Source: Verrucomicrobiia bacterium
GTDB taxonomy: Bacteria; Verrucomicrobiota; Verrucomicrobiia; Limisphaerales; UBA1319
Direction of reading: 5' to 3'
Assembly (NCBI GenBank): GCA_963664225.1
Contig: OY760937.1
Span: forward strand, 3,136,001-3,200,000
Length of the DNA stretch: 64,000 nt
Shown: positions 28,301 through 49,866 of the stretch, piece after piece
Numbering within the stretch: the first letter of the stretch is position 1
How the letters are laid out: each line of letters starts with the position of its first letter
The notes under the pieces: model-generated
What the model saw: the letters and a program-made list of their open reading frames with translations, nothing else
Told to the model about the DNA's origin: nothing
The model's database searches: none
Made by a program: the position numbers and the translations under genes

Positions 28301-28942
28301 GGCCAAGCTGGCAGGGAGCGCGATATTCGTCAGACTGGTGCAAGACCAAAAAGCAAGAGTGCCAATGCTGGTGACCTTGTCGGGTATATTAATATCCGCC
28401 AGATTGTTGCAGTCAAAGAAGGCCGTTTGTCCAATGCTGAGCACACTGTCAGGGAGCGTGATGCTTTTAAGCTTGTAGCAGCCTATGAACATCGTATCAG
28501 CAATATTGGTGATATTGTCGGGCAAGGTGACATTGGTCAGACCTGAACAACCGCCAAACGTGCCTGTTCCAAAACTAGTGATACTGTTGGGAATAACGAC
28601 ATTGGTTAACCCCCTGCATGCCTGGAATGCATAACTGCCCAAGGTTGTGACACTGTCGGGGAACGTTAATCCCGTTATGTTCGTGCCATTATAAAACGCC
28701 ATATCCCCAATGCTGGTCACCGGTTTGCCCTCAATGACATCCGGGATGTTCACGTTGCCGCCGGGGCCGGTGTATCCGGTGATGATGGCCGAAGTGTCGT
28801 TGGTCGTGTAGGTGAAGTCGCCAAACGTGTCGGCTCTAGCCAAGGTGAGCAGGCCGGATAAAACAAGGAGTATGGGGATGGCAAGCCACTGCGCAACGGT
28901 CATGGTTTGGAGAACACTTCCGTTGCTCATCGTTTTTCTCAT
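25319..28942 (-). CDS. BspA-type leucine-rich repeat (LRR_5) surface protein, paralogue A
   Basis: Many CxxLTxIxIPxSVTxIGxxAF repeats; signal peptide; C-terminal DADQDG...GTDP Ca-binding-like motif and GFYRV end. Confidence 0.92.
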   Translation of the reverse strand: MRKTMSNGSVLQTMTVAQWLAIPILLVLSGLLTLARADTFGDFTYTTNDTSAIITGYTGPGGNVNIPDVIEGKPVTSIGDMAFYNGTNITGLTFPDSVTTLGSYAFQACRGLTNVVIPNSITSFGTGTFGGCSGLTNVTLPDNITNIADTMFIGCYKLKSITLPDSVLSIGQTAFFDCNNLADINIPDKVTSIGTLAFWSCTSLTNIALPASLAQIGHWVFSGCNNLTTISVDPLNPAYSSIDGVLFTNNQSILLAYPPGKEGEYVVPATVKSIDNSAVKDCLELTGVTLPEGVTNIGPSAFYGCTKLAHINLPDSVTFIDQSAFYRCTSLTNIVIPESVVLSFPSIYFVSVYGESVFARCSSLTNITVDPANTNYSSIDGVLFNKSQSTLLQFPGGKTGSYMIPSTVTAIRESAFAGCAGLTDFAVPTNSVFRTVDGALLDKSLTTLIACPAGKTGSYSITNKVNQLGGFAFSDCVGLTNISISQTITNISRNAFYNCTGLTNIILPNRTKVIMDSAFFGCVGLTSITIPASVTKIESYAFEACSNLTGVYFEGNAPSVITANAPFLDANMATIYYRSGTTGWGTKYADRPTALWDKTEALDLSYQQIGSAYTIIGYMGAGGNVVIPASINGLPVTCIADYAFSYSYGSPAVTSITNITIPNTVTSIGNYAFSRCTALTNMTIPGSVTNIGYDAFNGCTALANITVPPGVAAIASEVFYGCTNLSNISIPDGVTRIGDAAFRSCRALTDVTLPKTVSTIGSAAFADCTSMTNIALPESATSMGSQCFSNCVALWNVTIPNGIINIESNTFYNCSSLTNVTIPDGLTRIGSYAFFGCGRLVNITIPGSVTDIESGVLFGSRVTSVVFEGNAPSFVASNAFGSGSVKIYYYLGTTGWGRFLAGKSTYLIGFNFSLIGSNVTITQYTGSNGSVVIPDIIQDIKVGVIGANAFKGCSTLSDIKMSDNIYTIDSSAFSGCTNLTNVVFGSGITNIRDSVFNACSSLKGIAIPAGVISIGSSVFANCSNLTAVYFAGNAPTPAPAFLFQNATNVTVYYRAGTTGWESTFAGRPTVLWVEQPTYQEWALTVGLLDKYPDASAETDDADQDGMRNLAEMQAGTDPTSPNSKLAFERVSRPNDLVDEDKTAIGSDQHPLFFQTVAGRKYEIQSVTAFGGVWQTETNITATTTQKRVLINKPVDQGFYRVVLVPVP

Positions 28943-29099
28943 ACTGCCGTTCTATCACTTGCTGAGGCACTTGCAATAACTGTTTTGCTCTGCCTGGGGA
29001 TGCAGGACAAAGTCAGGCGAGTTTTTAAATGGTTCTCGCCCCGTTCGTGCCAATACAGGTTTTAGGGCGAAATAGGAGAAATGCGTCACTTGGTTGCCA

Positions 29100-35344: not shown

Positions 35345-36078
35345 GCAAGCGTTGTATCACGCAATGAGACGCTTGCAATAACTGTTTTGCCCTGCCTGAG
35401 GTGCAGGAAAAAATTCTTCGGCAAGCGAGAAAGTCCTTATGAAGGGCATGTGAGTCTATACGAAACAAATATAGCAAGAGTTTCGGGATTGGCCGGGCGC
35501 CGATTGAGGGTCCGGCAAAAGTCAGATCTGAAAGGACGACCGCCCTCATGGAATGACGACCGCCCTCCCCATGAACCCAAAGTGGGGTGTCTTTCGTTAC
35601 AAGTTACATGGAAAGAAGTGGGTGAAGAAACATCAACATGGATAGGCAGGATGAGCAGGATATTTGACCACTGATATCACGGACGAGAAAGGAAATGGAT
35701 AATTGAGAATTTTAAAAAAAGACAAACATCCAATGGATGGGGATAGGCAGGGGAAAATCCGCAGATGAAACTGAGAAACGCAGATTAGGAGAACGAGAAG
35801 AGGGTGGATTTTGAAACCGCGAATGAACGTCAATAATTGGGGATCGGGAAAAAGGAATTGAACCACGAAATATGCGAAATGGAAAAAAGGATTGACGCAC
35901 GCCCTCATCCCGACCTTCTCCCCCAGGAGAAGGAGTAGTGTTGCGAGCCCTGGATTTATTGAACGGTTTGGAGGATGCCGCCGCGTGGGGTTGGTATAGG
36001 AGGAAAATATTAGTTGGTATGGAAAAAAGGATTGACGCACGCCCTCATCCCGACCTTCTCCCCCAGGAGCAACGGTAT

Positions 36079-36987
36079 TTAATTTGAGAGTGCAAAATCT
36101 GCGTTTTTGAGGATTTGGTTCATCAGGACAATGAGTTTGCGCATGACGGCGGTGAGCGCGACTTTGGCGGGCTTGCCCGCCAATCGGAGTCGTTCGTAGA
36201 ACTCCTTGAGTTGGCGATTGCAGCGCGCAGCCACCAGGGCGGCCATGTAGAGGGCACGTCTAACGGCGGCTCTTCCGCCACCGATGGAGCGGCGGCCTTG
36301 CCACTGGCCGCTTTCTCGAGGATGTGGAGCCAGTCCGGCCAAGGCGGCGGCCTGCCCCCGATTGAGCGTGCCCAACTCGGGCAGCTCAGCCAAAACCCCC
36401 AAGGCGGTAATCGCGCCCACCCCGGTGATGGCTTCGAGTTTTTTTGCGCGTTCATCCAGTTCTGTGGTTTTCTGGCGCAGCGCTTTGAGTTGGGTCTCGA
36501 TATGCTCCAGATCCCGTTCCAATCGACGCAGCAGGCTCTGGGCCTGGCGGCGCAACTTGGGCAGCGTGAGGCGTTCGATCTGATGGCGCTGGCTAATAAG
36601 CAGATCAAGGATCTGAGTGCGGCGGCGAACCAGTTCGGTCAACTGCTCCTCCACCTCGGAACGCGCGGGCGTGGGTTTGGGGGCGAAGGCCTGCCCATAG
36701 GCGGAGAGGACGGCGGCATCTATACGGTCGGTTTTGGCCCGTTGTCCCTGGGCGCGGGCGGGATTGATGATGCTGACAGGAATGCTGGCATGATGGAGGG
36801 CGTCAGCCACCTCACGCTCGTAGCCGCCGGTGGCTTCACAGATGACGTGAGCGCCGGGATGCTGCGCCAGGAGTTTGACGAGCTGGCGATGACCGGCGGC
36901 GGTATTGGGCAGATGGTGGGAACGACCGGCCAGTTGGAGATCAAGACTCAGCTTGGCAATATCCAAACCAGCGTAGATAGTGGTCAT
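36079..36987 (-). CDS. IS110 DEDD recombinase/transposase
   Basis: AGLDIAK, CEATGGYE, KTDRIDA, GVGAITA, GLAPHPRESG and ALYMAA motifs; alternative start at 37002. Confidence 0.93.
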   Translation of the reverse strand: MTTIYAGLDIAKLSLDLQLAGRSHHLPNTAAGHRQLVKLLAQHPGAHVICEATGGYEREVADALHHASIPVSIINPARAQGQRAKTDRIDAAVLSAYGQAFAPKPTPARSEVEEQLTELVRRRTQILDLLISQRHQIERLTLPKLRRQAQSLLRRLERDLEHIETQLKALRQKTTELDERAKKLEAITGVGAITALGVLAELPELGTLNRGQAAALAGLAPHPRESGQWQGRRSIGGGRAAVRRALYMAALVAARCNRQLKEFYERLRLAGKPAKVALTAVMRKLIVLMNQILKNADFALSN

Positions 36988-36988
36988 A

Positions 36989-37170
36989 GTGTTCTGGCTC
37001 ATTCTTGTAAATACGAGCAGGCCTTGGTGGGCCGCTCAAGCAACGGTTCGAGTTTAGGACACAGGCACGAACGGCTCTGGCTCCTCGCGCATTTGGTTAA
37101 AAACCAATGCAAGAAGGAAACGAGCTCGTCCGCGCCACTGTCCTGCCGCCTGCAGGCGGCAGGACAGTTC
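36989..37170 (-). ncRNA. Predicted bridge RNA of IS110 no.1
   Basis: 5' hairpin, target-binding loop and donor-binding loop with guide segments matching the element's own junctions (see findings). Confidence 0.8.
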
Positions 37171-37624
37171 CATCTATTCCGTCTTTTCAAACAAAACAAG
37201 AATAGATGGAAAATCAGATACAAGAAGGAGGAGTATTGGGAGATGTCGGTGTGTTTGGATGGTTTGGGAGGTGCCGCCGCGTGGGTTTGGTATAGGAGGA
37301 AAATATCAGTTGGTATGGAAAAAAGGAATGACGCACGCCATCATCACGGCTAAGCGCTGGCATCCCTGCCAGGATGCTTGAAGGGAATTGTTTGAATGGG
37401 AGAAGGGAAGAATGTGGGTTTTACGAATTAGAGCAGGCCATCGGATTATCGAGAGGGCTAGAAATATTCAAGCTTCCCTCCATTTGAATGGTGCGCCGTC
37501 TAAAGACGGGACTCCATACCCCGGAACGCCGCGCGCCGAGAATGACGTCACCCATGGCATTACACTTTTGGCTGCAGGATCGTTGGTTTCCAGACCAGGG
37601 GATTAGAGTGGGTTTGAGACGGTG

Positions 37625-37670
37625 AGCGGATTGGAAATCCGCGATACGGCAGGTTTGAAACCTGCGCTAC
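37625..37670. repeat. REP-like double hairpin
   Basis: GCGGATTGGAAATCCGC and GCAGGTTTGAAACCTGCGCTAC (GTAG end on the minus strand). Confidence 0.7.
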
Positions 37671-37816
37671 GGGTTGCGGTGTGGACGCGCGGGGGATTGA
37701 TTAAGTGTATGGCATGCCGTTGCGCTTTTTGGCCGAAAAGGTTCGTTAAACAGGTTCCAACAAAAAAGGGGCTGCCGTTGTGGTGGCAGCCCCATGCGTC
37801 ATGTTTCAGAAGAGGA

Positions 37817-39193
37817 TCAGATCTCCACGGTCTGGCCGGGAGTCGGCTCGAGAATCTTGATCCGCGGATGACGGGCGTGAATCTCCTGCTTGAACCATGC
37901 GATGGATTCGTCCTGGCCGTGGCCGAGGACAATGGTGCGCGGGTTCACCTGCGCGACAAAATCCATCATGTCATTGCGGTTGGCATGGGCGGTAAGATCG
38001 AAAATATCCATTTCGCATTTGCGGGTGAGTTCACCGGCTGATTTGCTAAAGAGGAAGGTATCGCCCGGTTTGGTGATTTTGAGGTGACCGCCGGGGGTGT
38101 CGGGATCCGCGTAGCCCACGAAGAAAATGGCGTGCTTTTCATCGCTCATGATCCGCACCGCCAGGTCGTGCGCGGCGGTGTTCTCGCTCATCATTCCCGA
38201 GGTCACCACAAAGATGCGGCCGCCGGTAAGGCGCATTTTCTGGGCCTGACCGGATTCGAGCACCTGCAGATCGAGGGCTTCATTGAGCATCAACGCGCTG
38301 TGCTGGCGGCAGGTGCGGTGGGCCTCCAGGTCGTAGATTTCCGTAAAGACGCGTCCCAGGCCGCCAATATAGATGGGTTGGCGCTTGAGTTTGCCCTCCC
38401 GCATCATCAATGCCAGCATGGCCAATACTTCCTGTGTCCGCCCCAGGGCGAATGAAGGAATCAGCACGCTGCCCTTGCGCTTGAGAACCTTTTGAATGGA
38501 CTCGGCGAGGCGCTGGACCTCGTTATCCCGGGAAAATCCGGGCGGCAACGCGCGGCTGCCCCGGGTGGTTTCCATGAGGAGGACATCCGCCTGAACTTCC
38601 TGGCACCGGGCGCCGCGGAGCAGGGTCTGGTCATGGAAACAGATATCGCCGGTGTAGAAAAACGTCTCTTTGCTGCCGCGAACCATGACTCCGGCGGAGC
38701 CGAGGGTGTGGCCGGCGTCGAAGAATTCGAGCGTGGGCGAGGTGAGGCCGGCGCGGGATTTGTGAAACGCGGCCCATTCGATTTCGCGATTGTAGCGGAA
38801 CCCCTGGAACCGGGCCGAGAGTTCGTCCACCTCGTCATGGTCATAGAGCGGATAATCGGGGATGCCCAGCTCGGTGCGCTGGCGGGTCATGACATTGACC
38901 GAGTTATGCAAAATCCGTTCGACCACGTAATAGCTCAAGTCGGTCATCAGGACGTGCGCGCGGGGAAACTGACGCATGGCCAGCGGCAGGGAGCCGACAT
39001 GATCGTGGTGGCAATGGGATATGGCGATGGCGTCCACATCCTCTTTTTTGATCTGACCGTAGAGCGGCAGGCTGTCTGTGCCTTCGCGTTTGGGGTGGGT
39101 TCCGGCATCCAGGAGCAGTCGATTGTCCTGAATATTCAACAACCACGCGCTGGCGCCAATCTCCTTTGCGGGGTTTAAATTCGTAATTCGCAT
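37817..39193 (-). CDS. MBL-fold beta-CASP ribonuclease (YSH1/CPSF-like)
   Basis: EIGAS, SHCHHDHVGSL, AGHTLGS, YTGD, FALGRTQE, TAHA and GHG motifs. Confidence 0.9.
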   Translation of the reverse strand: MRITNLNPAKEIGASAWLLNIQDNRLLLDAGTHPKREGTDSLPLYGQIKKEDVDAIAISHCHHDHVGSLPLAMRQFPRAHVLMTDLSYYVVERILHNSVNVMTRQRTELGIPDYPLYDHDEVDELSARFQGFRYNREIEWAAFHKSRAGLTSPTLEFFDAGHTLGSAGVMVRGSKETFFYTGDICFHDQTLLRGARCQEVQADVLLMETTRGSRALPPGFSRDNEVQRLAESIQKVLKRKGSVLIPSFALGRTQEVLAMLALMMREGKLKRQPIYIGGLGRVFTEIYDLEAHRTCRQHSALMLNEALDLQVLESGQAQKMRLTGGRIFVVTSGMMSENTAAHDLAVRIMSDEKHAIFFVGYADPDTPGGHLKITKPGDTFLFSKSAGELTRKCEMDIFDLTAHANRNDMMDFVAQVNPRTIVLGHGQDESIAWFKQEIHARHPRIKILEPTPGQTVEI

Positions 39194-39373
39194 TTTTAAT
39201 TCATACCAAGGGCGCAGCGGAAAGTTTCATCACAACAGAGGAATGAAGCGGATCGACCGGGCTCTTGGTTACAAGATTCCAATAAAACAACGGCCTACTC
39301 TAAGCGCATAAGCGCCTCTGCGCAATGGAAAACAAAATCGCAAACGGTTCGGGTCGCCTGAAATGCCGCGCCA

Positions 39374-40231
39374 GGGCGCAGGACACGATTCAGGATTGTG
39401 GAAGACTGCCATGGCAGTGCGCTGTTTTAAATCGGTTTTGCGGCAACGGCAGAACCGGCTTGCGGGGATCGCGGCGAAATTGAAACCGCCCGATTCAATA
39501 ACACCGTAAGCCGGTCAGGAGACCGGCGCTCGTGTGTCTGGCAGGTATTGGATCTATTGGGATGAAAGGAGCCCAACGGGGGCGGTGACGCCAACCGTAG
39601 CGGTAGGCCAGGTTCGATCCGCGAGGGTCGGACGCGAAAGGGCCGAGAGCAAAGGCGCGACCGTAGGAACACGAACGGGCAGTGAGGCCGGGTGCGTGGG
39701 TTAGCTGGCGAGTAACGGCGAAACCCAAAGGTCATCCAAACGCATCAGGTAGAGCCCGGCGGCGCGCGCCGACAGAGTCAATACCGACCCAGAGAGATCT
39801 GTCCCGTGAGAGCGGGACAGAAGTCAGCAGAGGCCATAGTAGTGATGAGGCCCGGTGAAAGCCGGGAGGAGCGAAGGGCCGAAGGAACAAACGGAGCCAA
39901 CCAAGGCGTTGGACATGAGGACGAGTGATGGAATGAAGCAACAGGACGCAACAATTACGGTTACCATCCTGGCACTGGCAAACGGCGGGCCCAACGCTGG
40001 AAGCGCCCAACCCGTCGAAGTATTCCGGGGTCACATGTCTGCACGACTGGGAAGGAAGAACTCTGAATGTTCCAACCGCCGGATGCGAGAAAACCGCACG
40101 TCCGGTGGTGTGGGAGGGTGCCGGGGCGAAATCCCTGGCACCCGACCCGATCGAAGTCACCTGGCGCCCTATATAGTTATAGGACGTTTCAAGGCCTTTT
40201 TCCATTTCCTGAAGAATTTTGTCACGCACCC
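39374..40231. mobile_element. Putative MITE-like cassette hosting the group II intron (no target duplication seen)
   Basis: Left end GGGCGCAGGACACGATTCAGG; right end GAAGAATTTTGTCACGCACCC. The last 66 bp are colinear with 45020-45085. Confidence 0.5.
39532..40151 (+). ncRNA. ORF-less group II intron, class IIC-like
   Basis: 5' GTGTG; AAGTCAGCAGAGGCCATAGTAG D2-D3 signature; D5 ACCGCCGGATGCG..CGCACGTCCGGTGGT with CGC triad (40075-40109); D6 ending CCCGACCCGAT; no RT ORF. Confidence 0.9.
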
Positions 40232-40250
40232 TTCGCCATTTTGGCATGCG

Positions 40251-40279
40251 TTGACACCTGGGGGGTGGGCTGTTAGCGT
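40251..40279 (+). promoter_or_regulatory. sigma70-type promoter of ileS
   Basis: TTGACA-17 bp-TAGCGT with extended -10 TG. Confidence 0.7.
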
Positions 40280-40294
40280 AATTGTCTTATAAAA

Positions 40295-43120
40295 ATGGCA
40301 ATGGACTATAAAAATTCGTTGAATTTGCCCAAGACGGACTTCCCCATGAAGGCCGATCTGGTGTCCCGGGAACCCCAGCGTCTGGAAAAGTGGGAGTCGG
40401 GCCAACTGTATGAAAAAATCCTGGCCCGGCGGGCGGCGGCCTCGCGGTTTATTTTGCATGACGGGCCGCCGTTCGCCAATGGGGATGTGCACATCGGCAC
40501 GGCGCTGAACAAGATTCTCAAGGATTTCATCATCAAGTACCACACGTTGCGCGGGCAGAACGCCCCCTATGTGCCGGGCTGGGATTGCCATGGGCTGCCC
40601 ATCGAATTCAAAGTGGTGCAGGAGCTTCGCAAAAAGGCCGGGGAAGCCGCCGCGGGGGCCGATGCCGCCACGATTCGCAAGGAATGCGCGGCGTATGCGC
40701 GCAAGTATATCGATTTGCAGCGGACGCAATTCAAGCGCCTGGGTGTGCTCGGGGATTGGGAGCATCCCTACCTGACGTTGGACCCCGCGTATGAAGCCGC
40801 GGAGCTGGGAATGTTCGCGGATATCGTGGACAAGGGCTTCGTTTACCGGGGCAAGAAACCGGTGTATTGGAGCATCCCGTGCCGCACCGCGCTGGCCGAG
40901 GCCGAGGTGGAATACCAGGACCATGTGAGCCAGAGCGTGTTTGTGAAATTCCCGGTGATCGGCCGGCCCAACACCTTTGTGGTGATCTGGACGACGACGC
41001 CGTGGACGCTGCCCGCGAACCTGGCCATCGCCTTTAATTCGACCCTGAGCTACACGATCGTGCATACCGGCGATGCGAGCTACATCGTCGCTGTGTCGCT
41101 TTTAAGTTCCGTGGCGGAGAAATGCGGCTGGGAGAATTACCAGATCATGCGCAGCCTCACCGGCGAGGAACTGGCGACCTATGTCTGCCAGCATCCGTTC
41201 TGCAACCGGCCCGCGCCGTTGCTGGCGGGAGACGCCTTCGTGGAGAGCACCACCGGTTCGGGCTTTGTGCATATCGCCCCGGGCCACGGTCTGGAGGATT
41301 ATCAACTGGGCCGTCAGAATGGCTTGCCCATCTACTCCCCGGTGGACGACAACGGCTGCCTGTGTTACACGCAAGACCTGCCCGTGGAGCAGCAGATGCC
41401 CGCGTCGCTGATCGGCAAAAGCATTCTGGAGAAGAATCACAAGAGCGATGCCAACGAGGCCGTTCTGGAGATCCTGCGCGAGGGCCAGATGCTTCTGCGC
41501 CAGGAGCCTTACACGCACAGCTACCCGCATTGCTGGCGGAGCAAGACCCCGGTGATCTTCCGCGCCATGGACCAATGGTTCATCCGCATCGACCATCAGG
41601 ATTTCCGCAACCAGGCCTTGAAGGCCATCGACCAGGTGAAATGGATTCCCGACTGGGGCAAGAGCCGCATCGAGGGGGCCGTGAAATCCCGCCCGGACTG
41701 GTGCATCTCGCGCCAGCGCTGCTGGGGCGTGCCAATCCCGGCCTTTTACGACGCCGAGCGCACTCCCATCCTGGACGCGCGCATCGTGCGCAACGCCGCC
41801 GCGTTATTCGAGAAATCCGGCTCCAATGTGTGGTTCGAGAAAACCGCGGAGGAATTATGGGCGCTGCTCCGGCCCGCGGATTGGAACGGTCCCGAGGCCA
41901 CCGCGAAATCGACCGACACGCTGGACGTGTGGATCGATTCCGGTTCCTCCTCGCGCAGCGTTTTGCAGAAGCGGCCTGAGCTGGCCCATCACCTGGCGGG
42001 TGTGGACGACTGGCAGGCGGATATCTACCTCGAGGGCAGCGACCAGCATCGCGGATGGTTCCAGTCCTCGCTGTTGCTCTCCCTCGCCGGGAATGGCGCG
42101 CCTCCCTATAAGACGGTGCTCACGCACGGGTTCATGGTGGATGCGGATCGCGAGAAAATTTCCAAGAGCAAGCAGGGCCAGGGCGGTTACGAGAAACCGC
42201 AGACCTCGGAGGCCTATGTCAAAAAATATGGCGCGGACGTGGTCCGGCTCTGGGTGGCCTCGCAGGATTATCGCAACGACATCATCGTGAGCGAGGAGCG
42301 CATCAGCAAGGTGGGCGAGACCTACCGCGTGATCCGGAACTCCCTGCGCTTCCAGCTCTCGAATCTCTTTGATTTCGATCCCGCGAAGCATCTGGTCGCG
42401 CCGGAGAAGATGACCGCGCTGGACCGCTGGATTCTGGACGCCTTTGCCGTGCTGGAGACGGAAATTGCCGCCGCCTACGAGGCGAGCGAGTTCCATGTGG
42501 TCTATCAGAAGATCAGCCAGTTCGTGGCGGTGGAGCTTTCCTCCGTCTATCACGATGTGGTGAAAGACCGCCTCTACACCGACGCGGCGAATTCGAACCG
42601 CCGGCGTTCCACGCAAACCGCCCTTTACTTGCTGGCGCGGGGCCTTTGCCAGGCGCTCTCGCCCATCCTGACCTTCACTGCGGACGAGGCCTGGGAATAT
42701 CTCCCCGGCGTTCAGCCAGGCGAATCGGTCCATGCCACGGATTGGACATTATTGGCGACCCGGCGTACTGAAGAGGAGCAGGAGACCTGGAAAAAGCTGA
42801 TGCACCTGCGGGACCTCGCGCTGCCGGAGCTGGAGAAGGCGCGCCAGGCCAAGCTCATCGGCAAATCGCTTGAGGCCAAAATAACGCTGACCGGACGGGC
42901 GGCCGAATTGCCCGCAGCGGATGCCGCAAAGGAAACGCTGCGCGAGTTGCTCAACGTGTCGCAACTGGAATTGATCCTGGACGAGGCGGACGTGGTCGTT
43001 TCCGTGGCGCGCTCCGGGGGTCAGAAGTGCGAGCGCTGCTGGCGCTGGGAATTGACGGTGGGCAGCCACACAGACCACCCGACCATCTGCGGGCGCTGTG
43101 TCGAGGCCGTGACGGCGTAA
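40295..43120 (+). CDS. ileS: Isoleucyl-tRNA synthetase (type 1)
   Basis: LHDGPPFANG, PGWDCHGLP, WTTTPWTLP, DWCISRQR, EGSDQHRGWF and KISKS motifs; C-terminal CERCW...CGRC zinc finger. Confidence 0.97.
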   Translation: MAMDYKNSLNLPKTDFPMKADLVSREPQRLEKWESGQLYEKILARRAAASRFILHDGPPFANGDVHIGTALNKILKDFIIKYHTLRGQNAPYVPGWDCHGLPIEFKVVQELRKKAGEAAAGADAATIRKECAAYARKYIDLQRTQFKRLGVLGDWEHPYLTLDPAYEAAELGMFADIVDKGFVYRGKKPVYWSIPCRTALAEAEVEYQDHVSQSVFVKFPVIGRPNTFVVIWTTTPWTLPANLAIAFNSTLSYTIVHTGDASYIVAVSLLSSVAEKCGWENYQIMRSLTGEELATYVCQHPFCNRPAPLLAGDAFVESTTGSGFVHIAPGHGLEDYQLGRQNGLPIYSPVDDNGCLCYTQDLPVEQQMPASLIGKSILEKNHKSDANEAVLEILREGQMLLRQEPYTHSYPHCWRSKTPVIFRAMDQWFIRIDHQDFRNQALKAIDQVKWIPDWGKSRIEGAVKSRPDWCISRQRCWGVPIPAFYDAERTPILDARIVRNAAALFEKSGSNVWFEKTAEELWALLRPADWNGPEATAKSTDTLDVWIDSGSSSRSVLQKRPELAHHLAGVDDWQADIYLEGSDQHRGWFQSSLLLSLAGNGAPPYKTVLTHGFMVDADREKISKSKQGQGGYEKPQTSEAYVKKYGADVVRLWVASQDYRNDIIVSEERISKVGETYRVIRNSLRFQLSNLFDFDPAKHLVAPEKMTALDRWILDAFAVLETEIAAAYEASEFHVVYQKISQFVAVELSSVYHDVVKDRLYTDAANSNRRRSTQTALYLLARGLCQALSPILTFTADEAWEYLPGVQPGESVHATDWTLLATRRTEEEQETWKKLMHLRDLALPELEKARQAKLIGKSLEAKITLTGRAAELPAADAAKETLRELLNVSQLELILDEADVVVSVARSGGQKCERCWRWELTVGSHTDHPTICGRCVEAVTA

Positions 43121-43149
43121 GGCCGCATTAACCATTTCCGTGTGTGAGA

Positions 43150-43191
43150 CCGGGGGACAGGTCCAGGAAAACCTGCTCCCCGGTTTTTTTT
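43150..43191 (+). terminator. Intrinsic terminator of ileS
   Basis: CCGGGGGACAGGT...ACCTGCTCCCCGG hairpin followed by a T run. Confidence 0.8.
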
Positions 43192-43299
43192 ATTTGAACC
43201 CGATCCCCGGTATGGGTCGCAGACGGGTCAGTGCGCGGGTGCGGGACAAAATTCTTCTGGGAGGATCTTTATGGAACCCCTGATACGGTTTCCACAGGT

Positions 43300-43570
43300 A
43301 ATCATCCGTTGGCGAGGAGAGCCCCGGGAAGCTCCCCGTAGCCAACGGTGAATAACTGTGCCGCCGCCAAAAAATCGAGCGGTGAAAAACTTTTGTCGCC
43401 GGGGTATAATGCTTCTGGCGGCATCGCCCCGGATGGATCACGGTCATACACCCCTTGTCTTAAGAAGACTGAGGAGAGTTTACCGGCCCGTCCGACGGCG
43501 CCTGTCAAAAAGTCTGAGAGAACTATTGCCCGCGAGGCTTCCTGTATCAGGTTGACTGACGACAGCGCTC
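43300..43570 (+). ncRNA. Predicted bridge RNA of IS110 no.2
   Basis: 5' hairpin (CCGTTGGC/GCCAACGG), then two internal loops with junction-matching guides. Confidence 0.78.
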
Positions 43571-43593
43571 CGATGCCCCGTAACGGAGGATCT

Positions 43594-44844
43594 ATGAAAT
43601 CATGGTTGGAGATATCCTGTTTTGCCGGATTGGATTGGGCCCGGGATCATCACGATGTGGTCATCGTCGATCGAGAGGGCAAGATCGTGGAACAGTTCCG
43701 CTTCGAGCATTCCCAGGAAGGCTGGGAGCAATGGCGGAAAAAGACGGCGCCCTTCGCCCCTTTGGCGGTGGCCATTGAGACGAGCTTCGGCACGGCTGTG
43801 GACCAGCTCCTGAGGGGGGAGGCAACGGTCTATCCGGTCAATCCCAAGAGCGCCCAGCGGTATCGGGATCGCAAGGTGCCCAGCGGCAGCAAGACCGATT
43901 TTCTGGATGCCTGGTCTCTGGCCGATGCCTTGCGGATCGACGGGCACGGTTGGAAAGCGCTGGTCCCAACGGACGCGCTGACCAGCCAGTTGCAGATGCT
44001 CTGCCGGGATGAGGTTCATCTCATCGGTCAGCGCACGCTGTTCGTAAATCAATTGCAACAAGCTCTCTTGGAATACTATCCGGCGGCCCTGGAGGCCTTT
44101 GAGGATTGGACCATGGCCTCGGCGTGGGATTTCATCATTGAGTTTCCAACGCCTCGTGCGCTGGTCAAAGCCGGCAAGCGACGGTGGGAAAAGTTCCTGC
44201 ACGTTCATAAGCTCTGGCGGCCGGAAACCGCTGAAAAACGGATGGGCATTTTTGCACGGGCCGATCAGTTTTGCGGCTCGGCGGCCCTGACGGCGGCCAA
44301 GGGCACCCTGGCGGTGAGCCTGGCCAAAATGTTACGCACGTTGCAGCAGCAACTGGATGTTTATCACGCGCAAATCCAGGCCTTGTTTGCACAGCACCCC
44401 GACCATGACTTGTTCGGTTCGCTGCCCGGAGCGGGCTCGTTTTTGGCTCCACGGCTGCTGGGAGAAATCGGCGGCGGGTCGGGCCGGTTTGAAAGCGCAC
44501 AGCATCTGCAGGGCATTGCGGGCACGGCTCCTGTGAGTTATCAATCGGGACAAATCGACAAGGTCCGCATCCGCCACCACTGCGACAAGTTCCTCCGCCA
44601 TGCCGTGCATCTGTGGAGCGATTGCAGTCGCAAGAAATGTCTTTGGGCACAGGTTTACTACCAGAAAAAACGGGAAGAGGGCAAAAGCCATGCCTGCGCC
44701 TTGCGATGTCTGGGCCAGCGGTGGCTCAAAATCATCTGGAAAATGCTCCAAACCCACGCGCCCTACGATCCGGAAATACATGCCAAAAACCAGCAGCTGC
44801 ATGGTTCGTGGGTGCTGAGTCTGCAGACCAAAACCGCCAGGTAA
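43594..44844 (+). CDS. IS110 DEDD recombinase/transposase (long type)
   Basis: FAGLDWA, AIETS, KTDFLDA, SLPGAG and GTAPVSYQSG motifs; RBS GGAGGA before ATG 43594. Confidence 0.93.
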   Translation: MKSWLEISCFAGLDWARDHHDVVIVDREGKIVEQFRFEHSQEGWEQWRKKTAPFAPLAVAIETSFGTAVDQLLRGEATVYPVNPKSAQRYRDRKVPSGSKTDFLDAWSLADALRIDGHGWKALVPTDALTSQLQMLCRDEVHLIGQRTLFVNQLQQALLEYYPAALEAFEDWTMASAWDFIIEFPTPRALVKAGKRRWEKFLHVHKLWRPETAEKRMGIFARADQFCGSAALTAAKGTLAVSLAKMLRTLQQQLDVYHAQIQALFAQHPDHDLFGSLPGAGSFLAPRLLGEIGGGSGRFESAQHLQGIAGTAPVSYQSGQIDKVRIRHHCDKFLRHAVHLWSDCSRKKCLWAQVYYQKKREEGKSHACALRCLGQRWLKIIWKMLQTHAPYDPEIHAKNQQLHGSWVLSLQTKTAR

Positions 44845-45142
44845 TATTGGTGAATAACTTTTATGAAAAACCATTTTACAACACAGAGAACAACTCTCCT
44901 CGGTCCTCTCCCCGTTCGTGCCTCACGGGGCGAGGAGGTGGAATGCGCGATTCGCAAGGTTTTGGCTTTTGGACGCATGGAAGCAGAAAAGATCGCTGAT
45001 GGCGCACAGCGGACTAACAGCCCTATATACTTCCATGTCGTTTTAAAGCCTTTTTCGGCATGCTGAAGAATTTTGTCGCGCGCCCTCAGTGCGCGCATTT
45101 AGAAAACACGGCTTGCACTTCAAATGAAGTCTGTTTCTATAG

Positions 45143-45700
45143 TTACTTCTCGTTTAAGTCTTTAATCATTTTCGCAAAATCTGTATTACAAAGTCTTTTC
45201 ATCGCAGGGTAACCTCCTTTAAAGAAAGGACAGAGCATGACTGTTAGCTCTTTATCAGTAAACAGGCCTTCTCTATCCGTGATGAATACCACCGCTGACA
45301 CCCATGCACAAAATGCACCACATCCCGGAGCAATTATTGAAATAGCCGTATTTACATCCGAATACTGATTATACTCGCACTTGAACAGTATAAGAGGCAA
45401 AGCGGTTTCGATTAAACACAGCCCCGCGATTATTCTCGTTGCAAATCGAAGCCAGGCGGTTGGATTAATATCCGGAGTGAAGGAGCAGGAGCCATCTTTG
45501 AAATAAAAACTGCAAATAATAAAGCACGCCATTGAAGGGACAAATAATATGCATAATATTTCATCGCTTAAATGACATACATTGGTTATTTGCAATATAT
45601 ACAATACTTGATTTAACAAAAAGCATACCACAGACACCAACGCAAGCATTCTGCGGAAATGTTTCAATATCATAAAGTTTGTTTGCTCCAAAAAGGTCAC
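45143..45700 (-). CDS. AT-rich hypothetical membrane protein
   Basis: 185-aa ORF with about 4 hydrophobic segments, visibly AT-richer than its neighbours; no family recognised. Confidence 0.6.
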   Translation of the reverse strand: MTFLEQTNFMILKHFRRMLALVSVVCFLLNQVLYILQITNVCHLSDEILCILFVPSMACFIICSFYFKDGSCSFTPDINPTAWLRFATRIIAGLCLIETALPLILFKCEYNQYSDVNTAISIIAPGCGAFCAWVSAVVFITDREGLFTDKELTVMLCPFFKGGYPAMKRLCNTDFAKMIKDLNEK

Positions 45701-45837
45701 CTATAAGATGCTTCGTCCTTGTTAAAGTGATGCGTTGGCTCTTGAGGAGTCACGGCCTTATTCCTTGGTTTCCATTCATTTCGCTATGTTCCCGAGGACC
45801 ACAGTTCTCGTCATGTTTCCCCCGAATGGCCACGTCC

Positions 45838-45896
45838 CTCCGGCCCATGACATGGCAAATCACTCCCGGATACCCGACTCTCAACTTGGGTGGCAT
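45838..45896 (-). pseudogene. N-terminal remnant of a REP-associated tyrosine (HUH) transposase-like gene
   Basis: Manual translation MPPKLRVGYPGVICHVMGR resembles the MPRxxRxxYPGAxYHVxxRG start of RAYT/TnpA(Y1) proteins; similarity then stops. Confidence 0.55.
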
Positions 45897-46066
45897 GGCC
45901 ATATCCTGCCGGATTCACCCAAAAAATCAACAATGAGAGCGCCGAACCAAATCTGCCCCCGGTTTCTTTTGACTCAATGCTGGACGCGCCTTTTTTCGTC
46001 AAAAAGGGAGGGTGCGCTTGGCGCTTGCGGGACGGAGCGTCTCACGTCAACATGTGTGAATCGGAT

Positions 46067-47977
46067 ATGTTGACTATTTCGGATGTTACAAAGGCTTTTG
46101 GCGGGCGGACGTTGTTTGCAAATGCGACGGTGCAGGTGGATCGCGGGGACCGGATTGGACTGGTCGGGGCGAACGGCGCGGGCAAATCGACGCTGTTTTC
46201 GCTGATCCTGCGCGCGCAAACGCCTGATGAGGGCAAAATCATCCTGGAGCGGCGCGCCAATATCGGCTGGCTGCCCCAGGAGAGCGAGCCTGCGGGCCAG
46301 GAGACTGTGCTGCAATTGGCGATCGGCACCGGGGCGTCGATCATCGGATCGGACCAGGGGGAGGAAGAGGATGCCGAGGACGAAGGGCTGGCCTATCACG
46401 AGGAGATGGCGGCCGCGGAATTGGAGCCCAAGGCGAAAAAGATCCTGCGCGGATTGGGTTTTCGCGAGAAGGACTTTGACCGTCCGGCACGGGAGATGAG
46501 CGGCGGCTGGGTGATGCGGGCGCGGCTGGCGAATCTGCTGGTGCGCGGGCCCGATCTGCTGCTGCTGGACGAGCCGACCAACCATCTGGACCTCGACGCG
46601 CTGTTGTGGTTCCAAAGTTATTTGATCAATTACCCGGGGGCGATTCTGCTCATTTCCCACGATCGCGAGTTTCTCAACCAGATTGTCGGGTCGATCGTCG
46701 AAATTCATCAGGGCAAGCTCATGCGCTACCAGGGCAATTACGAAAGCTACCTGGAGCAACGCCAGGCGCGGCTGGAGCAAATGGAGGCGGCTTACAAAAA
46801 CCAGCAGCGCGAGATCAACCGGCTCATGGATTTTGTGAACCGGTTCCGCGCCAAGAACACCAAGGCCGCCCAGGCCCAGAGCAAGCTCAAGCAGATCGAG
46901 CGGATGGAAAAGCTCGCCGCGCCGGACGCCGATGAGCGCGAGTTCGAATTCCGGTTTCCGCAGCCGGAGCGCAGCGGGTTGAAGGCCATCAAGCTGGAGC
47001 ATGTGACCTTCTCCTACGGGACCACGCCGGTCTATACGGATTTGAATTTCGTGGCGGAACGCGGCGAACGGACCGTGCTGGTGGGGCCGAACGGCGCGGG
47101 CAAGTCCACCCTGCTCAAACTCCTGGCCGGTGTGCTGCCGGTTAATTCCGGTCTGCGCGAGCCGGGGTTCCGCGTGAAGGTCGGCTACTATTCGCAATAC
47201 CGCATCGAGATGCTGCATGCGGACCGGACCATTCTCGAGGAGGCCATGGACACGCCGCAGCGTGTGACGGAGACCTTTGTGCGCACGGTTCTGGGGTCGT
47301 TTGGTTTCTGCGGCGACGATGTGTTCAAGGAGGTGAAGGTGTTGAGCGGCGGGGAAAAAAGCCGGCTCGCGCTCGTCAAGTTCCTGCTCGATCCGCCCAA
47401 CCTCCTGCTGATGGACGAACCGACCACGCATTTGGACATGGACGGTGTGGAGGCGCTGATTTTTGCGCTCGCGAAATTTGAAGGCACGCTGATTTTCATC
47501 AGCCATGATGTCTTCTTCATTCGCGAGCTGGCCGATCATGTGGTGCATGTGAAGGATGGTGTCCTGCGGCATTTCACCGGCGGTTATGCCTACTACCTGG
47601 ACCGCATGGCGATGGAGGCGGCGGCGGCCGAACAGGCCCTGGCGGCACGGCAAAGCGTGCGCAAACCCGTGGTCGAAACCCCCACGGTTTCGTCGCGCGA
47701 GCAGCGTCGTCTGCTGGCACAACAGCAGGACGCGCGGGCGAAGGTCCGGCGCGAGCAGCGCAAGCATGTCCAGGAGCTCGAGAAGGAAATTCACCGGCTC
47801 GAAGATCTCACGGTGAAGCTGACCGCGGAGCTTGAAGACCCGGCGACCTACGAGAAAAAGGACGGACGTGCCGCCGCGGTCAATCGTGAGCTGGCGGGCA
47901 TCAGCGATCGAATGCCCCACCTCATGAAGGATTGGGAGGCGGCTGCCGAAAAGCTCCAAGTCATGGAAGCGGATTGA
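46067..47977 (+). CDS. ABC-F family ATPase
   Basis: Two ABC domains (GANGAGKST/MSGGW/LLLDEPTNHLD; GPNGAGKST/LSGGEK/MDEPTTHLD), no TM segments, C-terminal coiled coil. Confidence 0.95.
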   Translation: MLTISDVTKAFGGRTLFANATVQVDRGDRIGLVGANGAGKSTLFSLILRAQTPDEGKIILERRANIGWLPQESEPAGQETVLQLAIGTGASIIGSDQGEEEDAEDEGLAYHEEMAAAELEPKAKKILRGLGFREKDFDRPAREMSGGWVMRARLANLLVRGPDLLLLDEPTNHLDLDALLWFQSYLINYPGAILLISHDREFLNQIVGSIVEIHQGKLMRYQGNYESYLEQRQARLEQMEAAYKNQQREINRLMDFVNRFRAKNTKAAQAQSKLKQIERMEKLAAPDADEREFEFRFPQPERSGLKAIKLEHVTFSYGTTPVYTDLNFVAERGERTVLVGPNGAGKSTLLKLLAGVLPVNSGLREPGFRVKVGYYSQYRIEMLHADRTILEEAMDTPQRVTETFVRTVLGSFGFCGDDVFKEVKVLSGGEKSRLALVKFLLDPPNLLLMDEPTTHLDMDGVEALIFALAKFEGTLIFISHDVFFIRELADHVVHVKDGVLRHFTGGYAYYLDRMAMEAAAAEQALAARQSVRKPVVETPTVSSREQRRLLAQQQDARAKVRREQRKHVQELEKEIHRLEDLTVKLTAELEDPATYEKKDGRAAAVNRELAGISDRMPHLMKDWEAAAEKLQVMEAD

Positions 47978-48070
47978 GAGTCCGCAGGTAAGGTGTTTAA
48001 TTCACATGGATGTGCAGGATGCACAGGATTGAGGAAAAACAGGACGTTTGCGTGAGCATCCATTTGTGAC

Positions 48071-48391
48071 GGGTGCATCACAATATTCTTCGGCAAGCGA
48101 AAAAGTCCTTAAAAAGGGCATGCGAGTATATACGAAACAAATATAGCAAGAGTTTCGGGAATGGCCGGGCGCCGATCGAGGGTCCGGCAAAAGTCAGATA
48201 TGAAAGGACGACCGCCCTCATCCCGGCCTTCTCCCCCAGGAGAAGGAGGAGTATTGCGAGCCCTGGGTTTATTGCACGGTTTGGAGGATGCCACCGCGCC
48301 GGACTACATGCCCCACACCGCCGACTGGCGTCCTGGCTGGGTTCATACGGTTTAGGCTTTTTACCAGCTTCCTGAATTTTGTCGTGCGTAC
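48071..48391. mobile_element. 321-bp MITE-like cassette with internal REP
   Basis: TIRs GGGTGCATCACAATATTC / GAATTTTGTCGTGCGTAC; 9-bp direct repeat ATTTGTGAC at 48062-70 and 48392-400. Body similar to 35399-35549 and 35901-35985. Confidence 0.85.
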
Positions 48392-48457
48392 ATTTGTGAC
48401 ACGCACTGCGACACACACTTGCATTTGAATCTCCGCGCGCTAGGCTGTTTTGCAGCC

Positions 48458-48907
48458 ATGAACGAGGGAAAAATCCAGGCGGAGGATCGCCCCATGTTGA
48501 TCGCCATTTTCCAGCAGAACTGGGAAAACGTGCGGCACATCAAGAACGAGCGGCTGACCTTCGCCAATTTTTACGCCGTCATCAACGCGGGCGCGCTGTC
48601 CCTGCTCAACACCGTCAAGGGCCAGGGTCGGGCCGAGATTTTCCTGCTGCTGTTCCTCTGGTTTTTTTCGATGCTGGGCCTGTTGACGAGCCTGCGCCTG
48701 AAGGCCGAACTGGAGGAGTGCCTCGAGAATATCGACGCCCTGCTCATCACCACGGGATTGGAATCGTTCATGGCGATGGGAGTCACAAACAAGGAACGGA
48801 TGCGCTATCCCAAGTTCCGGTGGATGTTCCCCGCCTTCTACTCGTTCACCACAACCGCCTTTACGGCGCTCCTGCTCTACAATTTGTTCGCCGGGCGGCT
48901 GCCATAA
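48458..48907 (+). CDS. Small hypothetical membrane protein
   Basis: 149 aa with about 3 hydrophobic helices and genome-like codon usage. Confidence 0.7.
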   Translation: MNEGKIQAEDRPMLIAIFQQNWENVRHIKNERLTFANFYAVINAGALSLLNTVKGQGRAEIFLLLFLWFFSMLGLLTSLRLKAELEECLENIDALLITTGLESFMAMGVTNKERMRYPKFRWMFPAFYSFTTTAFTALLLYNLFAGRLP

Positions 48908-48942
48908 AAAAAGCGCGCGGAATTTTGGAAAATCCCGCGCGC
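48906..48942. terminator. Terminator between convergent genes
   Basis: AAAAAAAGCGCGCGGAATTTTGGAAAATCCCGCGCGC hairpin with T tail on the minus strand. Confidence 0.7.
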
Positions 48943-48987
48943 CCAGTAATGCAAAGATCGCCGTCAGCGGCCTGCAACTTCTCCGAT

Positions 48988-49866
48988 TTATTTCGCGTTC
49001 AGAAGCGTCTGGTAAAATTCAAAGGCTTCCTTGGGGGTGCGCTTGTCATGGACCACGGCGCGAATGGCCTTGAGCATGGCAATGGGGTTCCCGGCCTGGA
49101 AGACATTGCGTCCCATATCGACACCAGCAGCGCCCTGTTGGATGGCATTGTAGGCCATCACGAGCGCCTCGTTCTCGGGGAGTTTCTTGCCACCCGCCAC
49201 CACGATCGGCACCGGGCAGGAGGCAGCGACTAGGTCAAATCCAGTGTCGCAAAAATAGGTCTTCACGAAGGTCGCGCCGTTTTCAGCGCAAACACGGCTG
49301 GCCAGGGCCAGATAGCGCGAGTCGCGCACGAGTTCCTTGCCCACGGCGGTGACGCCCAGCGTCGGAATGCCGTATTTATTACCGAGGTCGGCCGTCTTGA
49401 CCATGTTCGAGATGGTTTTCGCCTCGAACTTGCTGCCCACAGCCACCATGACCGCCAGGGCCGAGGCGTTGACGCGAATGGCATCCTCGATATCGAGCAC
49501 GCATTCATCGTTGAGGTCGGTGAGCACGGTGGTTCCCGCCGAATAGCGCAGCGACACCGGCTTGGCGCAGGTGGGCGGCACGATGGAGCGCAGCGCGCCC
49601 CGGGTACACATGATGCAATCGGCATGCTCGATCAGCGGCGTGATCGTGAGGTCCATGCGCTCGAGTCCCGAGGTGGGCCCCATGATGTAGCCGTGGTCGA
49701 AGGCGAGCATCACGGTGTGGCCGGAGGCGGGATTAAAAATCCGGCTCAGGCGGTCTTTCATTCCCCAATCGACATGGTCGAGTCCCTTGAGGAAAAATCC
49801 GTGACGTTGAACAGGAATACCGATGCCGTAATCCGCGGCATCCTTGTTGGAATCATTATCTGCCAT
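48988..49866 (-). CDS. lsrF: LsrF-like thiolase / class I aldolase
   Basis: DWGMKDRLSRIF, MLAFDHGYIMGPT, VKTY, VAGGKKLPE and GAAGVDMGRN motifs. Confidence 0.9.
   Translation of the reverse strand: MADNDSNKDAADYGIGIPVQRHGFFLKGLDHVDWGMKDRLSRIFNPASGHTVMLAFDHGYIMGPTSGLERMDLTITPLIEHADCIMCTRGALRSIVPPTCAKPVSLRYSAGTTVLTDLNDECVLDIEDAIRVNASALAVMVAVGSKFEAKTISNMVKTADLGNKYGIPTLGVTAVGKELVRDSRYLALASRVCAENGATFVKTYFCDTGFDLVAASCPVPIVVAGGKKLPENEALVMAYNAIQQGAAGVDMGRNVFQAGNPIAMLKAIRAVVHDKRTPKEAFEFYQTLLNAK

Follow-up and report, generated by a model that had tools for sequence, protein, structure and literature searches.

Mutator-like families of prokaryotic insertion sequences (IS) have inverted repeats of 18–39 bp with a terminal C and generate repeats of 8–9 bp; members of the ISKra4 group insert 13–17 bp upstream of sigma-A promoters, and a conserved −1 frameshift characterises the ISMich2 group (Guerillot et al. 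2014, PMC3942029, main text). Repetitive extragenic palindromes (REPs) are specific targets of IS110-family elements, namely IS621, ISPpu9, ISPpu10 and ISPa11 (Tobes & Pareja 2006, PMC1525189; Durrant et al. 2024, PMC11208160). Group IIC introns insert after stem-loops, carry no endonuclease domain and can occur as copies without an open reading frame (ORF) beside a related protein (Zimmerly & Semper 2015, PMC4424553). This paper examines a stretch of 64,000 nucleotides (the window) from a Verrucomicrobiia bacterium (GCA_963664225.1, contig OY760937.1, positions 3,136,001 to 3,200,000), part of a single-contig genome of 5.78 Mb with 56% G+C. In this DNA, MITEs (miniature inverted-repeat transposable elements) with ISKra4-like ends hold REP-type hairpins, and IS110 elements and a IIC-like intron sit at or beside such hairpins. 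The region most probably consists of layers of independent selfish elements stacked on one another (stacked parasitism), and not of a co-adapted system.

The cassettes of the window are bounded by ends with the 18-mer consensus GGGYGCRNGACAAAATTC. At three mismatches or fewer it has seven matches in the window, against 1.07 expected, and none of 100 shuffles reached seven; all seven lie where an initial annotation, made from the letters alone, had placed them (35399, 39374/40231, 43237/45085 and 48071/48391). The two perfect 9-bp flanking duplications that it had claimed, TCAGTGCGC and ATTTGTGAC, are exact on reading, and the pair 39374/40231 has no target duplication (6 of 9 flanking positions differ). 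In the whole genome, the end occurs 38 times exactly, 103 times with at most one mismatch and 170 times with at most two, compared with 7 matches at the last threshold in a first-order Markov copy of the genome. A forward end whose next end is reverse, within 8 kb, was counted as a pair, which gives 48 pairs. The 9-mers directly outside the ends are identical in 13 of the 48 and differ at no more than two positions in 26, so pairs with perfect duplications recur well beyond the window; control 9-mers taken one step further out agree at three mismatches or fewer in no pair and always differ at four positions or more.

By size, 18 pairs measure up to 260 bp, 11 fall at 261–340 bp, 5 at 341–1300 bp and 14 are longer. 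Alignment separates subfamilies A (~320 bp, including the 48071 cassette), B (~204 bp, including the 43237 cassette) and C (~242 bp); a fourth subfamily, D, is recognised by the left arm of the 39374 cassette. Flanks of different copies are unrelated. One of the long pairs is the candidate parent described below, and the others are MITEs with nested IS1634-, IS701-, IS3-, rve- and IS110-type elements. For empty sites, the left and right flanks of all 48 pairs were searched separately against the genome. Two elements proved to be inserted in other repeats, which provides paralogous empty sites, each with one copy of the 9-mer. The MITE_A at genome 618651–618970 reads ATCTATTTT, element, ATCTAATTT, and the repeat around it, the terminal part of an IS3-like element, exists in at least 11 empty copies with ATATATTTT present once; the MITE_B at genome 509367–509564 has CTGGCTTGC on both flanks, and its paralogue at 115240 has CTGGTTTGC once. 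Being short, non-coding and multi-copy, with inverted-repeat ends, target duplications and sites without the element, the cassettes are MITEs, as had been proposed. The family accounts for most of the non-coding repeats and many of the nested insertions in the intergenic DNA of this genome.

Outside this genome, MITE ends occur in 6 of 30 relatives, with 14, 11 and 8 matches in three and one each in three more. In one relative, a MITE of ~350 bp lies between duplications and contains B-like hairpins, and in another the 3′ end of a homologous transposase gene abuts an end sequence; MITE_A as a whole was found in none of the 30. A separate observation concerns genome 110621–117149, where two A-type elements stand head to tail and share a duplication, in the order TCTTGTTCA, 6.2-kb expanded element, TCTTCTTCA, 320-bp element, TCTTCTTCA; this suggests a second insertion at the same site or unequal exchange.

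A Mutator-like parent with the same ends had been guessed, and one ISKra4-family element (p-MULT 4) does carry them. This candidate parent spans genome 5219103–5220857 (1755 bp) and holds a 437-aa frame whose score with NF033572 (ISKra4 family) is 246.3 bits, or 244.9 bits when the whole genome was scanned (cut-off 205), and with Pfam UPF0236 27.4 bits (cut-off 24.3). It is the single locus in the genome with an ISKra4-family match. Its left end, GGGTGCAGGACAAAAATCTTC, agrees at 20 of 21 positions with the reverse complement of its right end, GGGTGCAGGACAAAATTCTTCGG; the ends match those of the MITEs over ~21–25 nt, and its interior has no match to a MITE profile and nothing in common with the MITEs. 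A 161-aa frame (DUF6788) lies upstream and overlaps the 437-aa frame in the −1 frame, the overlap holding GTA AAA AAA AAG. A_AAA_AAG is a classical slippery motif, and the transposase probably needs a −1 frameshift at this point.

In its family-model match, its ends of ~21–25 bp, which start with G and so show a terminal C on the other strand, and its 9-bp duplication, the system resembles the ISKra4 group and TnGBS/ISLre2 (p-MULT 3 and 4), and in its −1 frameshift layout it resembles ISMich2 (PMC3942029). It differs in that nearly all members here are non-autonomous derivatives, 75 ends at no more than one mismatch comparing with one transposase gene; the repeat of 8–9 bp is seen around the MITEs (perfect in 13/48), not around the transposase-bearing copy. 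The term MITE does not occur in the main text of PMC3942029.

Another trait of the ISKra4 group, insertion at a fixed distance upstream of sigma-70-like promoters (PMC3942029), recurs here with respect to a predicted promoter motif, and goes beyond what the initial annotation had described. Motif positions were counted outward from the tips of all 170 ends. TTG occupies outward positions 28–30 at 38 ends, where the other 65 positions have a mean of 3.9 and a maximum of 11, and in 24 ends position 28 is the first letter of TTG[AC][CA]. Further out, A is over-represented at position 52 and T at 56, where a −10 box past a 17-nt spacer would be expected. The −35-like TTGnnn motif begins 27 bp from the tip, 18 bp past the duplication, and reads away from the element; the published distance is 13–17 bp (PMC3942029, main text). 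The right flank of the parent element has TTGCGA at position 28. The signal is present at both kinds of end, and therefore no orientation rule is claimed.

Within the window (Table 1), the sizes given earlier for the cassettes stripped of later insertions held for one, of 321 bp, and needed slight correction for the others: 235 becomes ~233 bp at 43237 (1849 minus the 1616 bp of IS110 no. 2, 43282–44897) and 238 becomes 237 bp at 39374 (858 minus the 621-bp intron, 39532–40152). The 35.4–37.3 kb region, suspected to be an expanded 48071-like cassette lacking a clear right end, is indeed a one-ended, expanded relative. It has 134-bp tandem units, and genome 3171400–3172072 matches MITE_A 152–319, 89–191 and 146–189; no right inverted repeat is present in the element 35399–37340. 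Its architecture is that of an intact, duplication-flanked copy at genome 1738086–1739958. The weaker end reported at 28998, which lies outside the matches with up to three mismatches, reads as a decayed end with a B-type hairpin remnant behind it; it is preceded by sequence paralogous to 35300–35398.

Table 1. Features of the window discussed in the text, with positions counted from its first nucleotide.
Feature	Position	Strand	Remarks
Decayed inverted-repeat-like motif GGGATGCAGGACAAAGTC, then B-type hairpin remnant	28998–29075		Read from sequence
One-ended, expanded variant of MITE subfamily A	35399–37340		Left inverted repeat 35399–35416, A arm, extra segment, tandem A hairpin units, IS110 no. 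1
IS110 no. 1, type 1 subtype a	36068–37224	−	CT core copies at 36068–36069 and 37223–37224
IS110 no. 1 transposase ORF	36079–37002	−	DEDD_Tnp_IS110 plus Transposase_20
Putative bridge-RNA guide segments of IS110 no. 1	37082–37118	−	Assigned by analogy with IS621
Doublet of second REP type, GTAG-tagged, GCAGGTTTGAAACCTGC	37625–37665		Two 7-bp stems, z −3.4; IS110 type 3 target family
MITE, D-type left arm and B-type right arm, intron inside	39374–40231		Left arm: at least 13 full-length relatives in genome
D hairpin GCCGGTCAGGAGACCGGC plus GCTC	39510–39531	+	Immediately 5′ of intron
ORF-less group II intron, IIC-like, 621 bp	39532–40152	+	RF02001 84.7 bits, RF00029 44.7 bits
Target duplication TCAGTGCGC, left copy	43228–43236		Exact
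MITE subfamily B, ~233 bp, carrying IS110 no. 2	43237–45085		Genome 3180892–3181085 matches MITE_B 1–155
IS110 no. 2, type 2, 1616 bp including one CT core	43282–44897	+	CT at 43280–43281 and 44896–44897
IS110 no. 2 candidate guides	ACCCCT 43450–43455; GGAGAG 43473–43478	+	Target ACCC-CT-C
IS110 no. 2 transposase	43594–44844	+	DEDD_Tnp_IS110 plus Transposase_20
B hairpin TCCTC-CCCCG...CGGGG-GAGGA	44904–44936		5+6-bp stem, −10.1 kcal/mol, z −1.6
Target duplication TCAGTGCGC, right copy	45086–45094		Exact
−35-like TTGCAC	45113–45118	+	Begins 28 nt from MITE tip, reads away
Target duplication ATTTGTGAC, left copy	48062–48070		Exact
Intact MITE subfamily A, 321 bp	48071–48391		386 bits, profile positions 4–320 covered
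A hairpin CCTTCTCC-CCCA-GGAGAAGG	48227–48246		Holds unoccupied IS110 no. 1 target
Target duplication ATTTGTGAC, right copy	48392–48400		Exact
−35-like TTGCAT	48419–48424	+	Begins 28 nt from MITE tip; upstream of ORF starting near 48459
BspA-type leucine-rich-repeat genes	25319–28942 and 29582–35344	−	Upstream regions paralogous

A hairpin is present in each MITE subfamily. The A hairpin has an 8-bp stem (−8.5 kcal/mol, z −1.9), and the D hairpin, GCCGGTC-AGGA-GACCGGC, a 7-bp stem (−9.3 kcal/mol, z −4.3). Palindromic A-stem and D-stem patterns count on both strands, and only strand-specific counts were used. Profiles of the modules match the genome 98 times for A, 56 times for B and 102 times for D; the 48 pairs, which make up 0.94% of the genome, contain 37, 17 and 42 of these (96 of 256 together), an approximately 40-fold enrichment per base. 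Per base, REPs are thus far more frequent inside pairs of ends than outside them. Several pairs hold long arrays of 85-bp D units, with 12 at genome 1989367–1990539, 10 at 3241689–3242691 and 18 at 3271680–3273349. Solo arrays without ends also exist, for example at genome 157576–158437, 505634–506223 and 1978585–1979272.

The view that the hairpins belong to the MITEs did not hold: 160 of the 256 module matches lie outside intact pairs, the D hairpin has its own REP-associated tyrosine transposase (RAYT), and the A hairpin recurs in 10 of 80 other genomes of the order. Nine Y1_Tnp (IS200/RAYT-like) loci were found in the genome. One of them, a 275-aa RAYT-like ORF (L032 830–1657; Y1_Tnp 31.8 bits, cut-off 23; HVHVI motif), has the D hairpin GCCGGTCTCCAGACCGGCTTACCGC on both sides, plus further D units, which corresponds to the classical RAYT arrangement. 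Of the three hairpins, only D has a cognate RAYT. For A and B such a gene was considered and rejected, none of the nine Y1_Tnp loci being flanked by either; the only A-type match near a Y1 gene belongs to a MITE_A fragment whose end is 486 bp from the Y1 gene at genome 2905976. Three further RAYT-like genes (genome 2207283, 2905976 and 3202520; L026, L029 and L030) are each flanked by their own distinct repeat, and therefore several REP–RAYT pairs exist side by side in this genome.

Searched as a 32-nt sequence at two mismatches or fewer, the A hairpin has 26 copies in this genome and 1–5 copies in each of the 10 others, every one of which represents a different genus and family; a reversed control gave none. 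In one variant the two arms of the stem have changed together, so that pairing is preserved (CCCTCTCC...GGAGAGGG). As an observation in its own right, the A hairpin is kept at 0–2 mismatches across other families of the order (e.g. L041, L042 and L043), while coding DNA within the same genus is only ~70% identical; the best relative, of the same genus, reaches only ~70% identity in the coding flank, and synteny is broken there. This pattern suggests that the REP has spread laterally or is under strong constraint.

Like described REP/REPIN–IS110 systems (PMC1525189, PMC11208160), the present one has hairpin targets, a CT core at both junctions, target-matching candidate guides in the non-coding end and one hairpin family that flanks a RAYT-like gene. 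It differs from these in that many hairpins lie inside DDE-type MITEs with 9-bp duplications, in direct tandem arrays and not in inverted doublets, and in that the A and B hairpins have no RAYT among the nine Y1 loci. A more distant parallel is provided by the BOX elements of Streptococcus pneumoniae, which are modular boxA-boxB(n)-boxC repeats; they are not known to have an established parent transposase. Both are small non-coding mobile repeats with fixed end modules and a variable tandem stem-forming module, and they differ in host, ends and size, and in that a parent family is identified here.

Among the elements that occupy the hairpins, two IS110 elements lie in the window. Both proteins match PF01548 and PF02371, and they score 192.1 (no. 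1) and 176.7 bits with NF033542 (cut-off 140). The elements lack terminal inverted repeats, and a CT core stands at both junctions in all five copies of type 1 and all four of type 2; all three IS110 types of this genome insert at a CT core. Type 1 copies uniformly have the junctions ...CT/TGTATC and CCGTTG/CT... (the slash marks the element boundary), with the CT core duplicated. In IS110 no. 1 they read ...CCTCCTT CT/TGTATC and CCGTTG/CT CCTGGGGG, and the element lies inside a hairpin stem. The three copies of subtype a target ..TCCTT-CT-CCT..; two are in an A hairpin stem (in the window and in the intact MITE_A at genome 1738086–1739958) and one is in a look-alike outside any hairpin. The two copies of subtype b (90% protein identity) target ..(G/C)TCC-CT-CCC.., one in the B hairpin of a decayed MITE_B and the other in unique DNA.

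The subtypes differ in two 5′ non-coding stretches, TCCTTCT and AGGAG in subtype a and TTCCCT and GGGAG in subtype b, in step with their targets. In IS110 no. 1, the reverse complement of AGAAGGA (37112–37118) reads TCCTTCT, which is left target plus core, and that of CTCCT (37082–37086) reads AGGAG, which would pair with core plus right target. Such co-variation of guide and target is what the bridge-RNA model described for IS621 (PMC11208160) predicts, if the analogy holds. In an Rfam scan of the window, no IS110 non-coding RNA was matched at gathering score.

Type 2, with four identical copies, targets ACCC-CT-C, and all four have the junctions ACCC CT/GATACGG and GAACAA/CT C. Two copies are at the same position in a MITE_B arm, 6 nt from the hairpin, and two are elsewhere, one apparently in coding sequence; unoccupied MITE_B copies read ..CCC-CT-CTC at the type 2 site. 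Of the earlier statement that both IS110 elements sit in REPs, the part on no. 1 stands, whereas no. 2 is in the MITE arm, 6 nt beside the stem and not in the REP itself. All five copies of type 3, none of them in the window, lie in the GTAG-tagged REP.

Since the window element and the copy at 1738086–1739958 share one architecture, joint transposition of MITE and IS110 no. 1 was considered and rejected: the IS copies are 96.5% identical, compared with 85–91% in the flanks, and two independent insertions into related MITE variants are therefore more likely. Elsewhere, at genome 1793956–1795879, 130 bp separate a copy of IS110 type 1 from one of the ORF-less introns, without any MITE end; the spot looks like a small hot spot of hairpin-like targets.

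The intron of the window has domains D1–D4 and D5–D6 recognised by Rfam at 39615–40151. It is one of three ORF-less 621-bp copies in the genome, the other two being identical or nearly so. A parent intron of 1880 bp at genome 2134364–2136243 also matches RF02001 and RF00029. The only Pfam matches of its 503-aa ORF at E ≤0.001 are RVT_1 and GIIM, with no endonuclease-domain family among them, and TIGR04416 matches at 404.6 bits. Each of the four copies is preceded by a stem-loop and (G/A)CTC, with the intron starting immediately behind. Two are at the D hairpin in a D-type MITE arm, and two at another hairpin repeat (18 copies, none inside pairs). The claim that the intron sits in a REP inside a cassette is right as to the MITE and the D hairpin and imprecise as to the site, the intron starting 4 nt past its hairpin. 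The term IIC-like is drawn from the ribozyme match, the domains and the insertion site, and membership of class C is predicted from these traits.

In its small ribozyme, reverse transcriptase and maturase domains, lack of a matched endonuclease family and very short exon match, the intron resembles group IIC introns that follow terminator stem-loops or attC sites, and ORF-less copies in a genome with a related intron-encoded protein are likewise described for these (PMC4424553). It differs in that the stem-loops here are REP-type, without the T-run of a terminator, and two lie inside MITEs. The parent intron is part of a complex local duplication at genome 2134205–2142514, in which D and A modules alternate over ~8 kb; outward of the D-type arms at 2134205 and 2138074 the flanks are identical, which marks these loci clearly as segmental duplications. 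A second type of group II intron, with 19 copies between genome 45798 and 5612864, has one of three kinds of ~60-bp upstream flank and unique downstream flanks; in two of its copies, a MITE arm and an end of the family studied here follow the intron 3′ end.

Taken together, these data are best accommodated by three superimposed layers. In the first, non-coding MITEs of at least four subfamilies (A–D), with inverted repeats of ~21–25 bp as in the single ISKra4-family element, would be moved in trans by its transposase; insertion duplicates 9 bp, and the tip tends to fall 27 bp upstream of a −35-like TTGnnn. In the second, the MITE interiors consist of REP-type hairpin modules, which are found outside MITEs as well and of which at least one has its own RAYT. 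We infer that the founders of the subfamilies took up pre-existing hairpin units; since each founder carried a hairpin, transposition of the MITEs copied the hairpins around the genome, and unequal recombination or slippage may have amplified the units in tandem. In the third layer, a CT core within specific hairpins or next to them is where three IS110-family elements recombine, guided, by analogy, by their own non-coding RNA loops; the IIC-like intron would reverse-splice immediately 3′ of hairpins that have RCTC behind them, and the ORF-less 621-bp copies presumably use the reverse transcriptase of the parent in trans.

The genome contains 29 exact IS110-1a target 17-mers, 16 of them inside pairs, and 69 D hairpin + RCTC sites, 34 inside pairs; MITE amplification has therefore about doubled the available landing sites. 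Among the 18 copies of IS110 elements and IIC-like intron, 7 are MITE-borne, 5 occupy the REP type that has no link to MITEs, and the remaining 6 have other locations. The invaders recognise their sequence wherever it is found and not the MITE, and there is no sign that the layers depend on each other.

This scheme of stacked, independent elements has several observations against it. Empty sites were obtained only in part: the single 9-mer was recovered at paralogous sites of two other MITEs, but for none of the three MITEs of the window in relatives or contigs. Compared with 30 relatives, window 47300–49200 matched in its coding flanks only (~70–78% identity, on different contigs), with no empty allele, and among contigs of four public runs none joins the flanks of any of the three with a single 9-mer. 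Around the transposase-bearing copy itself there is no target duplication, 7 of the 9 positions being different; with its split gene this copy may be dead and the MITEs, in that case, fossils. The TTG signal is present at only 38 of 170 ends, at a distance unlike that in the main text of PMC3942029. The folding advantage of the A and B hairpins over shuffles is only modest (z −1.9 and −1.6), and a shared-repeat comparison of the flanks of the nine Y1 loci placed neither beside a Y1 gene. The module matches outside intact pairs are found partly beside a single end and partly in solo tandem arrays, so that the opposite order of events, in which hairpin units invaded the MITEs, may also apply. 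The bridge-RNA assignment relies on matches of 5–7 nt and on analogy. Finally, copies per invader are few (2 to 5).

The co-adapted three-tier system suggested by the initial annotation, in which MITEs persist as distributors of landing pads and the RNA-guided elements depend on MITE sites, draws on the enrichment of hairpin modules inside pairs of ends, on the half or so of exact IS110-1a and intron targets that are MITE-borne and on the 7 of 18 copies in such sites. What survives of it is the location of IS110 elements and IIC-like intron at hairpins; the dependence does not, since 11 of 18 copies are outside MITEs, including 5/5 of type 3, 2/4 of IS110 no. 2 and 2/4 of the intron. Occupied sites have no visible bias towards MITE-borne hairpins. 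IS1634-, IS701-, IS3- and rve-type elements, which are not guided, are nested in MITEs too, at unrelated positions, which suggests tolerated insertion, and there is no hint of a benefit from invasion to the MITE or its transposase. Co-adaptation is therefore judged improbable.

It is likewise doubtful that the hairpins are REPs useful to the host, as terminators, insulators or RNA-stabilising stems, with MITEs tolerated or favoured as their deliverers upstream of promoters and IS110 and intron insertion as incidental damage. The spread of the A hairpin through 10 of 80 genomes of the order, where same-genus coding DNA is ~70% identical, and the stem kept by a two-sided change would fit such a role, as would the position of the MITEs between genes at a fixed distance upstream of predicted promoters. 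Promoter-upstream insertion is, however, a published trait of the transposase group (PMC3942029) and therefore needs no host benefit; the stability of A and B is modest, and tandem arrays of up to 18 units are hard to square with a need for one terminator. That the cassettes are not transposons at all, but REP or tandem-repeat arrays with conserved boundaries spread by recombination or segmental duplication, accords with the solo arrays and with the identical flanks at 2134205 and 2138074, yet is hardly credible given 48 pairs of which 13 have perfect 9-bp duplications and 26 have them within two mismatches, where the control has none, along with unrelated flanks, empty paralogous sites with a single 9-mer and a transposase gene bounded by the same ends.

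Within the favoured reading of stacked independent elements, each layer follows behaviour that has been described: promoter-seeking in Mutator-like elements (PMC3942029), REPs as IS110 targets (PMC1525189; PMC11208160) and IIC introns at hairpins (PMC4424553). The earlier claim of an undescribed system was too strong in this respect, the last two being in print. In searches of open-access full texts, no MITE family belonging to this transposase group came up that has an interior of REP units (in tandem amplification, in one case with a cognate RAYT) and thereby multiplies the targets of RNA-guided elements. No case of an intron in a MITE like this one was found there either; a group I intron carrying a MITE is described in Thiomargarita (PMC4853749).

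A more specific proposal, advanced tentatively and with rather less than even confidence, is that these MITEs may be chimeric non-autonomous elements. REP modules, themselves HUH/RAYT substrates, would reside in MITEs moved by a Mutator-like DDE transposase, be carried to promoter-upstream sites and so set where IS110 elements and the IIC-like intron accumulate. If true, REPs can spread by a route that does not require RAYT, and the targets open to RNA-guided parasites are shaped by another parasite. How REPs multiply is still argued, and direct RAYT-driven movement is hard to show. In this genome, whole REP units can be seen to have been copied as passengers of a cut-and-paste type MITE with clean 9-bp duplications, and this offers a concrete, testable alternative route. 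One genome also makes available matched sets of identical IS110 and intron targets inside and outside MITEs, and the two IS110 subtypes that differ in guide and target together are material for the target rules of bridge recombinases.

Two minor observations relate to the surroundings of the window cassettes. A soil metagenome contig of 1368 bp, 96–98% identical to the window, joins 43185 directly to 45991 and therefore represents a close relative without the whole 2.8 kb (MITE, IS110 no. 2 and an unannotated ORF at 45143–45700); the joint 43185/45991 is not a precise empty site. The upstream regions of the two large BspA-type leucine-rich-repeat genes (28900–29000 and 35300–35420) are paralogous, and each runs into a MITE-end-like motif. 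Since both meet such a motif, the end probably predates the duplication of gene and promoter, unless the two copies received hits at one and the same site.

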